The position numbers are program-made. A stretch of 30,925 nt of DNA from Rhizobium sp. Q54 (lineage in GTDB: Bacteria; Pseudomonadota; Alphaproteobacteria; Rickettsiales; UBA1997), in assembly GCA_945865745.1 (NCBI GenBank), contig CAMBFP010000001.1:1-30925 (forward strand), read 5' to 3'. Shown here in pieces: positions 18,001 to 24,000 of the stretch (its first letter is position 1; each line of letters begins with the position of its first letter).

Positions 18001-21000
18001 AAAGAATTAGGAGAAATTTTTGATCCACTACCAAAGGAAGGCGAAGAATTATCTTTAGATTGTGAGTCAGAAGAACATGGTGACATCGCTGGATATTCTT
18101 TGTTGATGGCAGGTGGCAAGTTTAAACTCCAAAGTAAATTCGATTACAAAGTAAATGAGGATGTTCCTGGCGGTAAAGAATTGTTAGAAACTCTGAAGGA
18201 ATTAAAACAGAAACAGCAACAGAAGAAACTAGAAGAAGCAGATCGAGAAATAATATTAAAGGCATTCTTGAGAAGAGATGGCATTAAAGAAAATTTCCAT
18301 TTATCGAAAAAGGATTTTCCTGATCTAGCGCTAAATCAAAGGCCAAAAGTTAATGCAAAGATGATCGAGAAAATTCTCGAAAAATGTGATGAAGGTGCTA
18401 AAAAAGGTGATCGCTCCTTGCTCTACTACGCTGACTTTGGGAGTCTAGAATTTGATTTTACAGGATTGAGTAATGAAAAAACTCAGAAGTTTTTCAAAAG
18501 TTCTTTTTACGCAAATTTCCGTAATTGCCAATTCAACAATCTCGATCTTACTGAAATTACACCAGAAGTAAAAAAATCTATCGACAGCATGATTTTCCCA
18601 AAATGTGTTTTTAGAGATGCGAAGCTACCAGAAGATTTTAAGTTTAAATGGTCTAGTGATGCTATTAATGGAGTGCCCGAAGCGAGTCGTGAAGCAAAGC
18701 CGAGCAATGTGCCAAAATTTAAAGGTGTAGAGCGAGCAATAGAAAGATTGCGCCATTTACCATCCACGACTGTAACCCCAATTTCTGCCGCTAGACTTGA
18801 TTCTTCGCTCGGAAAAGGGCGCTAATAATTCAGATCTAACTTTCGAGCCGTCGAATCGAACAGAGTTAACCCCAAATCACCCAATTCAAAACTCATTTTT
18901 TACACACGACACACTTCAAGCTGTTGATTTCTCTACATCCACAAAAAACTCTAATTCTCGCGGCGCCGCGAGAATTCAAAATTAATCACAGAGAAAATGA
19001 TCAAAGAAAAAACAGAAAAACCAAAATCCACACAAGCCCAAGTCAGTTTAATCGTAAAAAATAACTCAGCACAAATTGCTCTTGTCGGCTACAAAAAACT
19101 TCTCGCAGAAGTGCAGAAAGAAATCGCTCAAGCTCAAAGCAGCGCCATCAAAACAATCACTCGACAAAAAGTGCTAATGGCTTGGAACGTCGGAAAAATA
19201 ATTAACAAGAACTTGTCTCGTAACACAAAAACAGGTTACGGAGAAAAATTAATTGAGCAGTTGGTGCAAGACACATCAATAGCCGACAAGGTTCTCTACA
19301 AGATGCGCAGCTTTTACCAAGCTTACCCAAAGCTTCCGAAAGATGACGATCGTTTAAACTGGACTCACTACCAGGCGTTAAGCGGAGTAAAAAAAGAGGA
19401 AGAAAGAAAGCGTTTAGAAGATCTAACTAGAGAGAATGCTTGGACTACCAACAACCTTCAAACAGAAGTCGCCAAATCTAAAAACGGCAAAGGTAAATTT
19501 GCTAAAAAAGATTCTGAAAAAATTAGCAAAAAACCCCTCCCAACAAAACTCCACCCAGAACGTGGTAAATTATTTTCTTACCCATTAATCAAACTCGAGA
19601 AAGCTGATGTAATCTGCATCGATTGTGGATTTAATTTTTTCCGTGAAGTTGAAAATCAATCTTCAAAAACCTTAAAAAACGCGACTAAAGTTGACGTCAC
19701 CAAAAAAGACAAAACTTACTCACTAAAAAAATCCGACACTCATTCCCGCAAATTTAATACTTACAAAGCCTACCTAGATCGTGTTGTTGATGGCGACACA
19801 ATCCGCGTCACGGTTGATCTTGGTTTCAAAACTTTCCACAATGAAATCATCAGATTAAAAGGGATCGATGCCCCAGAAATCAAAACCGCAGAAGGTAAAA
19901 AAAGTGCGCGAGCTTTGACTCGCATCATCGGCAATTCTTCTTTTCTCATCATCAAGACCATTCGCATCGACATTTACGGCCGTTACGTAGCCGACATCTT
20001 CTTCGGCGATAAAAATGAAACCGACTCACAAAAAGTTGCAGATGAAGGAACTTACCTAAATCAACTTTTGCTCGACAAAAGGTTGGTACAAATTTTGACG
20101 GAGTAGAACATTCGATGGGATGATAGATTAAAGTGCAGAGCAACAAAAAATGTGGCGGATTAAGATGGAAGGAGCGGGAAGGAAGTGAGAAATACAAGCA
20201 TCAAGTTGGTTACTTTCTTAAATCTCTCTCGTCTCATTTTCTATCTTAAGTCCCTATTCAATCCTCCCAAAAAAGATAAAGAATTTGTGAATTACAAAAA
20301 AAATTTTTAAAGCTCTAAGCTCAGGCGCCTCAACTTTATTTTACCTCTTCAATAAATAAAAATAAGTCATGAGTAAGCCACCATCAACCAAGACAAAATT
20401 AAGAAAATACATCCGTTCTGTTACTGCCGCAGATAATCAAGTGACGTTGATTGATCTTGAGTGGGGCCAAATCTCCGACGACGGTGCCGCGTCTTTGTCT
20501 TTGGCTCTGAAACATCCCAATTGTAAGGTGACATCAATTAATCTTGGGGTGAGCCAAATCTCTTATGTTGGTGCCGCTTCTTTGGCTTGGGCTTTAAAAC
20601 ACCCTAATTGTGAGGTGACATCAATTAATTTTGGGGTGAGTCAAATTTCTGATAAAGGTGCCGAGTTTTTTGCTGAGGCTTTGAAACATCCCAATTGTAA
20701 GGTGACATCAATTAATCTTGGCGCGAGCCAAATCTCTGACAAAGGTGCCTTAGCTTTAGCTGGGGCTTTGAAGGATCCTGTTTGTAAGGTGGAGGCAATT
20801 CATCTTTGGGAAAATGAAATATCCGAAATTGGTGCGCTGGCCTTGGCTGAGTCTTTGAGGGATCGTAATTGTAAGGTAAGTTCGATTGATCTTTGTCGGA
20901 ACAAAATATCTCACGCTCTCCTAGACCAAATCGAACATGAATTAGAAATCAAAGTCCAAATCGATAGATTAGAAAAAGATCTAGAAAACTCAGCAGTAAA

Positions 21001-24000
21001 ATATGAAGAAAGAGTTAATCAGCTAAGAGGTCTCGCTAAAAAATTAATGAGGAACCCTCAAGATTTTGTTGATCCTCAAGCGACTAGCTCGACCATGGTT
21101 ACCAAATGGACCTCGGAAGAAACCAAAGATTCTGCACAAGCTATTTTCAAAAGCTCTCTAGATCTAGCAAAGCAATTCATCGCCTACGGACAATCCGAAG
21201 ACGCAAAGCAAATGATCGGACGAGCCAGAGAAGTTAGTGAAAAATTCTCCAGCAAAGAATCTGGTGAAGAAATAACCGAGACCTTGAAGTATCTCGAGCA
21301 AATTCAAGAAAGAATTACCGCTCCTAGTGCAACAATCTTGGCTGGCTCGGCGTTGAATTTGGTTGGAGTTAAGAGTGGAAATAAAGGGAGAGGTGAATAG
21401 AAATCTTCTTCTAGGTAAAGACGAATAACGTAAGCTAAATTTAAATCTCTTTTAATGAAAAATTCTGGAAAAAACTTTTTAACTTGGGCGATTATTTTTG
21501 CCGTGGTGATGGTCATTTCTAACTTGATTAAAGACCCGAATAGCGCGTCTGGAAATAAGGTCGTCTTCAGTGAATTTATGAAGAAGGTTGATGCGGGCGA
21601 AGTGATTTCTGTCGACATCAAGGGCAGCGATTTGACCGGCAAAATGAAAGATGGTTCGCAGTTTTACACTTATCTTCCCGAATATCCCGATCTCGTTTCA
21701 ACCTTACAGGAGAAGGGCGTTGAGATTAATGCCGTGCCTTTAGTTAGTAAATCAGACAAGATCATTGCCGGAATTCTTGGCTGGCTTCCTCTTCTTGTGA
21801 TGGTTGGCTTGTGGATTTATTTTGCGCGCGGTGCTGCTGGCGGCGGTGGACGTGGCGGCGCTTTTGGATTTGGTAAATCGCGTGCTAAACTTTTACAGGA
21901 AAGCAAAGGTAAAGTTACTTTTGGCGATGTGGCTGGGATTGACGAGGCGAAACAAGAACTCACCGAGATTGTCGACTTTCTAAAAGATCCAAAAAAATAC
22001 GTAGATGTTGGCGCAAGAATTCCACGCGGCTGTTTATTAATCGGCTCTCCGGGAACTGGTAAAACTTTGCTAGCCCGCGCCATTGCTGGTGAGGCGGGAG
22101 TTCCATTTTTTTCAATTTCTGGCTCTGATTTCGTGGAAATGTTTGTCGGTGTCGGCGCGAGTAGAGTGCGTGACATGTTTGAGCAGGCGAAAAAATCTGC
22201 ACCTTGCATTGTTTTTATCGACGAGATCGATGCTGTCGGTCGTCATCGTGGCTCTGGAGTTGGTGGTGGAAATGATGAGCGCGAACAAACCCTCAACCAA
22301 ATGCTTGTTGAGATGGACGGATTTTCTGACAATGAAGGTGTGGTAATTATCGCCGCGACAAATCGTCCTGATGTTTTGGATCGTGCCTTGCTTCGTCCTG
22401 GGCGTTTCGATCGACAAGTTACCGTGCCAAATCCTGACATTATCGGACGTGAACAAATTCTTGGCGTGCACATTAAAAAAATTGTCGCTGCTTCCGATAT
22501 TGATGTGAAAACTTTAGCGCGCGGAACGCCTGGTTTTGCCGGCGCAGATCTTGCCAATCTTGTAAATGAAGCGGCACTCACTGCAGCGCGTTTCAATCAG
22601 AAAATGGTGACGATGCAAAATTTTGAAGATGCCAAAGATAAAATCATGATGGGCACCGAGCGCAAGTCGATGGTGATGCAAAAATCGGAAAAAGAGCTTA
22701 CGTCTTACCACGAAGCTGGTCACGCGATCACCGCGCTTAACTGTCCAAATTCTGATCCTATTCACAAAGCAACAATCATCCCACGTGGTCGCGCTCTAGG
22801 TTTGGTAATGCGCCTTCCTGAGCATGATCGCTTCTCGGTTACGCGCGCAAAACTCAAAGATGATCTAATTGTTGCCTTCGGCGGACGCGCTGCGGAAGAA
22901 TTAATTTTTGGTTACGAGCAAGTTACAACAGGTGCTTCTTCCGATATTCAGCAAGCAACCTCAATGGCACGCGCAATGGTTACAAAATGGGGCCTAAGCG
23001 ATAAAGTTGGGGCGATCGATTACGGCGAAGATGACGGTTCAAGATTTTACGCCGCCAATAAACCCTACTCGCAAGAAACCGGCAGAATCATTGACGAAGA
23101 GGTGAAGCGCATAATTAACGAAGGTCTTGCAGAAGCCAAAAAAATCCTTAACGAGAAAAAAGACGATTTGGAAAAATTGGCTCGAGCTTTACTTGAATAC
23201 GAAACTTTGAGTGGCGAGGAAATTAAAGATTTACTTGCAGGCAAAGAAATTAGAAAACCTTCAGTGCAAAGCGGCTCAGCAGCTAGTGCAATCAGTGAAG
23301 GCCTCATTCCAAAAGTCAGTTAATCAATAGAAATAACTAAAAACATGCAGTTCGAAGTAGCAAAGCAGTCATTACTTAAAGCCATCTCAAATGTGAGTGG
23401 TGCAGTGGAAAGAAAGAACACAATTCCTGTTCTGCAAAATATTAAAATCGAAGCGCAAAAAACGCAGGAAGGTGACAAGGTAATCTTGTCGGCGACTGAC
23501 ATGGATATTCTTGTCACCGCGACTTTCGAAGCAGACATAAAAAAGAGCGGAGTGACTACGGTTCCAGCGCAAATGTTCTTCGATATTGTGCGTAAAATTC
23601 CCGAAGGCGCGATCATGATTTCGCAAGAAAGCCCGACGATTTTACAGATTAAATCCGGTAAATCGAAATACAGTTTGCCTTGTATCGACGCGACAGAATT
23701 TCCGAATTTATCGGAGGGCGAATTGGGCGAAGAAATCACAATTAAGTCAGAAGATTTAATGCGAATGATCGAAAAAACACGCTTCGCAATTTCTAGCGAT
23801 GAAACTCGTTACTACCTCAATGGCCTTTATTTACATGCGATTAAACAAGGTACGAATTTCAGTTTGCGCACTGTTGCCACCGATGGTCACAGGCTCGCCC
23901 TTTCTTTCGCTGACATTGATTTAAAAACTCCTTTTGGTGTGATTTTACCAAAAAAATCTGTTGCTGAAATTCGCAAAATTATCGAGGCAACGAAGGAAGT

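Follow-up and report, generated by a model that had tools for sequence, protein, structure and literature searches.

The window analysed here is a DNA stretch of 30,925 nucleotides (positions 1 to 30,925 of the forward strand of contig CAMBFP010000001.1, assembly GCA_945865745.1) from Rhizobium sp. Q54, which is placed in UBA1997 of the Rickettsiales in GTDB. The lineage is an uncultured freshwater genus from lake metagenomes (such as Baikal, Mendota, Trout Bog, Tanganyika and Zurich), and the assembly comprises 1.06 Mb in 138 contigs and is 71% complete. The window encodes a giant protein of 4575 residues that ends in a short motif, here called the tag, and a LRR protein of 343 residues with a similar end. 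The motif is real, specific to the C-terminus and essentially confined to one genus, in which it sits on unrelated cytoplasmic, eukaryote-like or orphan proteins. The features of the locus are as follows:

2397..4226, + strand: VirD4/RvhD4-type coupling protein (Pfam T4SS-DNA_transf, 2e-141)
5098..18825, + strand: open reading frame of the giant 4575-residue carrier, with a UCH/USP domain in the N-terminal part, a SecA-DEAD-like region in the middle and the tail motif at the very end
18700..18738, + strand: candidate degenerate second copy of the motif, PSNVPKFKGVERA, 20 residues ahead of the main motif of the giant
18760..18798, + strand: motif core of the giant, PSTTVTPISAARL (P0, S1, T3, V4, P6, A9, R11, L12)
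18799..18825, + strand: basic end of the giant after the motif, DSSLGKGR, plus the stop codon (end of the translated reading frame)
18997..20106, + strand: DUF1016_N-SNase protein between the giant and LRR genes, a negative neighbour without the motif
20369..21400, + strand: LRR_6 (RNI-type) protein of 343 residues with a helical C-terminal half (Pfam LRR_6, 5e-09)
21326..21364, + strand: motif core of the LRR protein, PSATILAGSALNL (14.0 bits)
21365..21400, + strand: basic end of the LRR protein after the motif, VGVKSGNKGRGE, plus the stop codon (end of the translated reading frame)

The giant protein is encoded by the largest open reading frame in the window and matches the Pfam families UCH (5e-17) and SecA_DEAD (4e-22). 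It ends in LPSTTVTPISAARLDSSLGKGR, with the stop codon at 18823-18825, while the LRR protein ends in APSATILAGSALNLVGVKSGNKGRGE. An earlier interpretation of the window made without database searches, the sequence-only reading, had singled out these two ends as a candidate export signal shared by otherwise unrelated proteins. The tail sequences were as it had described them, with the cores at 18760-18798 and 21326-21364, and no BLAST similarity was found between the two proteins outside the tail. The pattern that it had proposed, PS-x-T-[VI]-x3-SA-x2-L, fits both tails and has only these two matches in the six frames of the 1.06-Mb assembly. The second PS segment that it had placed at 18700 in the giant is also there. 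This segment, PSNVPKFKGVERA, attains 11.3 bits with the motif matrix described below; only 14 of the 247,824 internal positions in the same genome reach 11 bits or more. It may represent a degenerate second copy of the motif. The tail of the DUF1016_N-SNase protein between the two genes, ...YLNQLLLDKRLVQILTE, fits neither the regular expression nor the matrix.

The similarity between two tails is not sufficient to carry the claim, as its pairwise significance is only about 1%. Among 314,028 pairs of C-terminal 35-residue segments from 793 gene-like open reading frames, 1.0% had six or more identical residues within a stretch of 13 at comparable offsets, and the local gapped score of 30 between the giant and the LRR protein was reached by 0.7% of the random pairs and by 1.3% of the shuffled sequences. 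The roughly 20 proteins in the window form about 190 pairs, so that chance alone would yield one or two of this kind. On this point the sequence-only reading was statistically unsound.

The motif emerges from comparisons with other proteins. When the remaining 792 tails were ranked against that of the giant, a 733-residue protein on contig C55 came first and a 1398-residue protein on contig C24 joint third. They end in ...GPGTSIAPIAAKRLKPEPLIRARG and ...VPKTSVALTSASRIVVGDLSKPR, respectively, and are the only other proteins with a UCH domain in the genome. The UCH regions of the three proteins are paralogous, and 150, 157 and about 3770 unrelated residues lie between the UCH region and the tail. 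In the orthologs from a large protein collection, the linker around the tail is variable but the tail pattern itself has been kept; for example, the orthologs of the C55 protein retain P0, V/I4, A9 and L12 between variable flanks. Proteins from other species with a C-terminal region like that of the giant also end in the motif. This region is shared with relatives annotated as pentapeptide proteins; the pentapeptide family PF13599 itself was considered and had no match in the Q54 genome, and a word-indexed search with the last 676 residues of the giant as the query gave no matches.

An alignment of 54 tails defines the core as P-[SGN]-x-[ST]-[VIPF]-x2-[PT]-x-A-x-[KRQN]-[LV], followed by 7-21 mostly basic residues (median 10) and the stop codon. 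The proline at position 0 is invariant (54/54). Position 1 is occupied by S (30 of the 54 tails), G (10) or N (6), position 2 by T, N, S or P, position 3 by S (29) or T (8), and position 4 by V (19), I (15), P (13) or F (7). Further downstream, P (18) and T (9) are found at position 7, A at position 9 (45 tails), E or K at position 10, K (20), R (12), Q (9) or N (8) at position 11, and L (38) or V (7) at position 12. The spacing of P, A and L (0, +9, +12) noted in the two window proteins recurs exactly in the orthologs and in the tails from other species. The core begins 20-34 residues before the end of the protein. Past the core, 82% of the tails carry a net positive charge compared to 55% of the background, a [KR]x[KR] end is found in 38% of the tails versus 17% of the background (p = 5e-4, which is optimistic because orthologs were included), and the pattern [KR]-x5-9-[KR]-x-[KR] in 42% versus 14%. 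The KGR sequence that the sequence-only reading had seen near both ends is a semi-conserved feature, since 13% of the motif tails end in [KR]G[KR], compared to 1% of the background. No residues are common to the carriers in the 25 positions upstream of P0, and an acidic block ahead of the motif, which was also considered, gave no consistent signal in the tails. In the tail of the C24 protein (L002:7962-8045), a comparison with its ortholog (P0013 / G007) reveals a partial tandem duplication of six residues at the motif start, PSTSLV followed by PKTSVA.

A 13-position matrix was built solely from the tails of other genomes and then run on the tails of the Q54 genome. Nine tails scored 13 bits or more, while 0.27 were predicted from the 247,824 internal positions. 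These are the UCH protein on C55 (23.1 bits), the giant (22.6 bits), a 197-residue orphan on C84 (18.1 bits), an ankyrin protein on C27 (17.9 bits), the PARG-Ank-UCH protein on C24 (16.5 bits), a 1635-residue protein on C54 (15.0 bits), an orphan on C17 (14.3 bits), the LRR protein (14.0 bits) and an orphan on C69 (13.3 bits). On the profile hidden Markov models (HMMs), the core of the giant scored 17.6-25 bits. A regular expression derived from the foreign tails matched four tails in the genome (the giant, C55, LRR and C84), where 0.06 were expected from internal positions and 0.14 from composition-preserving shuffles. The two best profile matches outside the training set in this genome were two of its approximately six ankyrin proteins. 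Profiles with permuted columns never attained the real scores of the LRR or ankyrin tails, which argues that the order of the residues counts beyond their composition. Thus, a scan of all tails in the genome, which the sequence-only reading had put forward as a check, shows that the motif is more common than expected by chance. Its observation that housekeeping proteins are free of the motif also extends beyond the window, since none was recognized among the carriers or among the top 13 tails of the genome, and its suggestion that the motif could be used to list candidates is borne out by the about nine proteins obtained from this 71%-complete genome.

To cover the genus, in which GTDB contains 43 further species, all 44 genomes were translated in six frames and searched with profiles of the tails (A1, then A2). 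Of the 33 new matches in the genus, i.e., those outside the training set and in open reading frames of at least 125 residues, 32 ended within 21 residues of the stop codon. In 146 genomes from other families of the order, the match rate equaled the expectation from the E-values, and one of seven matches in such reading frames was C-terminal. Across the family, 19 of the 43 other genomes of the genus had matches at E <= 0.02, compared to 4 of 82 genomes in 16 sister genera, consistent with the proposal that the motif is lineage-specific. Taken together, these positions and taxon counts show that the motif is C-terminal and essentially restricted to the genus. One of the few matches outside the genus (G237:C15:21-86, genus g109 of the same family) sits at the low-coordinate end of a 604-residue open reading frame on the minus strand and is thus probably C-terminal, and one sister genus may contain the motif, albeit rarely. 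The tail profile also caught a short open frame, ..CPNPSITPPRAKNF.., that is common to L173 (G011:C7), L176 (G005:C78) and L177 (G052:C21). This frame probably reflects a conserved gene read out of register and would thus represent a conserved false positive.

After removal of the last 35 residues, 37 carriers fell into 17 BLAST clusters, consisting of one supercluster of the UCH/pentapeptide type, two pairs and 14 singletons. The tag thus closes no fewer than 15 mutually unrelated families, among them UCH deubiquitinases. The carriers range in length from 171 to 4575 residues and include proteins with the Pfam domains UCH (three proteins), PARG, Ank, LRR_6, ApbA_C and a haem-oxygenase-like domain, while most have no Pfam family. 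The core sequences are only 0.26-0.51 identical at the nucleotide level, the match at third codon positions of identical residues is random (0/6 between the giant and the LRR protein), and no similarity between carriers was found downstream of the stop codons. The random third positions and the unrelated DNA after the stop codons show that conservation acts on the peptide, and the tag is therefore maintained by selection on the peptide rather than on the DNA. A translated repeat element, such as the Rickettsia palindromic element, or a recent duplication was ruled out by the same random synonymous sites and unrelated flanks.

While the giant is a firm carrier of the tag, the membership of the LRR protein had to be weighed separately. 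Its tail ranks eighth of 793 on the matrix built from foreign tails, at a level where about 0.2 tails are expected and 7-8 were seen, and none of 100 column-permuted profiles reached its real score. All six class positions fit, and the 12 residues from the core to the end as well as the KGR end are typical of the carriers. The only other copy of the full LRR protein is 99% identical and has an unchanged tail, although two residues just upstream differ. The alternative is that the LRR tail resembles the motif by chance, while the motif is real in the giant and the other carriers. This is in line with the 1% level of the pairwise similarity to the giant, with the different ends of the LRR homologs in related species and with the fact that all other matches cover the LRR part only, so that no orthologs extend beyond it from which the conservation of the tail could be judged. 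Two further points weigh against membership: the tail scored only about 4 bits on the full-length HMMs (rank 25 of 793, and rank 22-61 of 2166 open reading frames), and the regular expression was composed after the LRR tail had been seen. On the full-length HMMs, the LRR tail lies within the background, whereas it stands out on the core-only matrix and the regular expression (four matches, the LRR protein included, against 0.06-0.14 expected). Given the low rank on the full-length HMMs, membership is not certain, but with the scores, the end distance and the intact tail in the second copy we consider it highly probable from the sequences that the LRR protein is a carrier, and a chance resemblance correspondingly unlikely.

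The next question is what the tag does. That it is a functional C-terminal mark on effector-like proteins is very probable. A segment at the N-terminal end that was scored as hydrophobic by a heuristic was found in none of 27 carriers but in 25% of the background open reading frames, which points to export in one step from the cytoplasm. VirD4 is present in all 44 genomes of the genus. The Q54 genome encodes two VirB4 paralogs, one VirB10 and a VirB6-like protein of at least 1144 residues, which corresponds to the rvh layout of the type IV secretion system (T4SS). The latter protein (VirB6/TrbL-like, L032, G000:C57:3-3434) is cut by the contig end and has a long hydrophilic C-terminal extension, similar to the extended RvhB6 paralogs in the Rickettsiales. 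Neither FlhA/SctV of type III nor TssC of type VI systems was found in five near-complete genomes (97-98%) of the genus. In the same five genomes, PrtD and HlyD of type I systems (TIGR01842, TIGR01843) passed the cut-offs in two, while G004, G009 and G014 lack both above the cut-offs and yet carry tails. The Q54 genome has a TolC-like protein and a weak HlyD-like match of 38 bits. Adjacent PrtD/HlyD pairs are located at G017:C2:161699-164592 and G031:C26:14871-18004 and are patchily distributed within the genus.

We suggest that the tagged proteins are recruited by the VirD4 (RvhD4) protein of the rvh T4SS, pass through it unfolded with the C-terminus first, and are delivered into a protist host. 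The basic end would act as the counterpart of the Arg-rich VirB/D4 signal, while the P...A..L core would contribute lineage-specific recognition; the VirD4/RvhD4-type protein in the window is the proposed receptor, and the giant UCH/SecA-like protein is a probable secreted product. The interpretation as an export signal is partly supported overall. We lean toward the complete statement, i.e., that the tag is a genus-specific C-terminal element that serves as a signal for type IV export. That it represents the first sequence-defined translocation motif of a Rickettsiales rvh T4SS, evolved in one genus, with a compact core (P-S-x-S-[VI]-x4-A-x-[KR]-L) and a basic end read by RvhD4 or by a genus-specific adaptor, is a more specific proposal for which we see an even balance of arguments.

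Several results weigh against type IV export or against the strength of the numbers behind it. The link to type IV secretion is circumstantial, being based on elimination and analogy, and the signal-peptide test was a hydrophobicity heuristic and not SignalP. The rvh system is found throughout the Rickettsiales, yet the motif is almost limited to one genus, and a search for a genus-specific feature of VirD4 gave none, the C-terminal tails of this protein being merely variable. A conserved linkage between virD4 and the giant gene had to be rejected: the two genes adjoin in this genome only, and in none of the 56 VirD4 loci is the N-terminal part of the giant encoded downstream, so that the position beside virD4 is not kept in the relatives. 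Finally, the open reading frames were called from stop to stop with approximate starts, and the carrier counts include many orthologs and paralogs, which overstates the number of independent events.

Known C-terminal signals offer both parallels and differences. The Agrobacterium proteins VirF, VirE2, VirE3 and VirD5 have an Arg-rich C-terminal consensus (Vergunst 2005, as cited in PMC10025392). Similar to this VirB/D4 signal, the tag is placed in the last 20-35 residues, is hydrophilic and net positive, and occurs on proteins without a Sec signal in organisms with a VirD4 coupling protein. It differs in that a non-basic core (invariant Pro, Ala +9, Leu +12) is added, in that it is limited to one genus and in that its translocation is something we infer. 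The features of a VirB/D4 signal that are found here are the position in the last approximately 50 residues, the basic end, the lack of a Sec signal and VirD4 in 44/44 genomes. In Rickettsia, the C-terminal tails of RalF and RARP-2 bind RvhD4 (10.1101/2023.02.26.530123). The order is the same, as are the type of T4SS, with a duplicated VirB4 and a long VirB6, the ankyrin proteins among the carriers and the tail as the proposed binding element; in contrast, about 55 tails align to a single motif here, for which the recognition by VirD4 is a proposal. To our knowledge, no common sequence motif has been described for the Rickettsia substrates.

The conceptually closest system is the XVIPCD of the T4SS effectors in Xanthomonas and Stenotrophomonas, which folds into a domain of about 120 residues, has a Gln-rich tail and occurs on antibacterial toxins (PMC10025392; PMC8740702). 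Like the tag, it is alignable, conserved and C-terminal, and it allows otherwise unrelated effectors to be listed, whereas the tag is a linear motif of about 25 residues on proteins that look directed at eukaryotes. An identity with the XVIPCD was ruled out, as conservation begins at P0 approximately 25 residues from the end, the 25 residues ahead of it are unrelated, and no BLAST similarity between families was found after removal of the tails. The signal of the Bartonella Bep proteins is bipartite and consists of a BID domain, which is helical and about 100 residues long, and a positively charged tail. The tag shares this two-part layout of a recognizable element followed by a basic C-terminal end, but its first part is a 13-residue linear motif and not a BID domain. 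The type I signals, as in the Ehrlichia TRPs and Ank200 (PMC3417381), are comparable in that they, like those of serralysin and lipase, are uncleaved, Sec-independent and located at the extreme C-terminal end, and are carried by repeat and ankyrin proteins of symbionts. However, the pair of the ATP-binding cassette (ABC) transporter and membrane fusion protein is missing from three of the five near-complete genomes, and the tail is basic with a proline rather than acidic or rich in the residues LDAVTSIF.

These differences bear on the possibility that the tag is a type I signal, an uncleaved tail read by an ABC transporter with HlyD and TolC as in the Ehrlichia TRPs, Ank200 and the Orientia Ank proteins. 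The C-terminal, uncleaved nature of such signals, the lack of Sec signals in the carriers, the TolC-like protein in the Q54 genome and the neighboring PrtD and HlyD genes in G017 and G031 would all agree with it. Yet the three genomes without PrtD/HlyD equivalogs above the cut-offs also carry tails, the Q54 genome itself has merely the weak HlyD-like match, no RTX repeats were identified by Pfam in at least 30 carriers, and the tails are rich in Lys and Arg with an invariant proline. Moreover, the tail composition equals the background, with frequencies of 0.51 versus 0.53 for the residues LDAVTSIF and 0.21 versus 0.19 for KHPMWC, and we therefore regard a type I signal as quite improbable. 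An even smaller probability is given to a role within the bacterial cell itself, in which the tag would govern the stability or storage of the proteins, for example as a degron or as a binding site for a chaperone or adaptor. Basic C-terminal recognition motifs for ClpX exist, and the tag is strictly C-terminal and portable, but such a role would leave its restriction to eukaryote-like and orphan proteins of a single genus unexplained, and no lineage-specific adaptor was identified. A sortase, exosortase or rhombosortase signal (LPXTG, PEP-CTERM, GlyGly-CTERM) was rejected because no transmembrane segment follows the motif, the 7-21 residues at this site being hydrophilic in most carriers, and N-terminal signals are absent.

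Somewhat more plausible than these, albeit still unlikely, is a short linear motif directed at the host and read by a eukaryotic factor after delivery, either instead of or besides a secretion signal. The candidates considered jointly under this alternative are a bipartite nuclear localization signal (NLS) of the type [KR][KR]-x7-10-[KR]x[KR], a P/A-x-x-S site of the MATH-domain or USP7 type and a polybasic end for membrane targeting; the tails may resemble NLS and USP7 motifs. The eukaryote-like domains of the carriers and the two basic clusters around a short spacer in the tails would fit, as would the effector-like proteins of the genus with CaaX-like ends (CVVS, CLVM), which imply that C-terminal signals read by the host are used in the genus. 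On the other hand, such motifs can work anywhere in disordered regions, while 32 of the 33 matches are placed at the extreme C-terminal end with 7-21 residues to the stop, the spacer does not reach the length found in a classical bipartite NLS, and the invariant proline, A9 and L12 are left unexplained. The export signal for the rvh T4SS thus remains the explanation that we favor. The proteins with CaaX-like ends are a 518-residue LRR protein (L007, G001:C23), which ends in ...CCVVS, and a 199-residue protein (L072, G032:C132), which ends in ...CDCLVM and also bears a weak tail motif. Their sequences suggest that these ends are host prenylation signals.

According to reviews, T4SS effectors lack a consensus signal (PMC10025392). 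A short alignable motif on unrelated proteins would allow effectors of this genus to be discovered by sequence search and, if the interpretation is correct, the whole effector repertoire, comprising dozens of orphan families in 44 species, could be read from the genomes. Finding rvh T4SS substrates is difficult, and only a handful are known in Rickettsia. The motif would also provide an experimental handle by which signal recognition by a Rickettsiales coupling protein becomes testable in an uncultured protist symbiont, and it would indicate that a secretion tag can emerge and spread over many gene families inside one genus.

The surroundings of virD4 are partly conserved in the genus. The order recN-virD4-aroE, which spans 703-5032 in the window, is kept in many of the species (loci L087-L139). 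Among the 56 VirD4 loci, aroE is present in 31 and recN in 20, and the gene downstream of aroE varies. The DUF1016_N-SNase fusion has two paralogs in the Q54 genome, on C27 (325 residues) and C49 (344 residues), and a ..YLNQLLLD.. block is common to their C-terminal parts. A 733-residue ankyrin protein (L033, G000:C27:5815-8013) has a hydrophobic segment resembling a transmembrane helix directly before the basic tail, and may be a tail-anchored effector. A different conserved C-terminal block, ..EIIIF/Y.RAL...E....E.YL.KKWGI, is found in at least eight proteins of 200-350 residues in the same genome (on C98, C103, C28, C111, C76, C53, C12 and C3). This block is much stronger than the tail motif, and it resembles the end of a LamG-type domain family.

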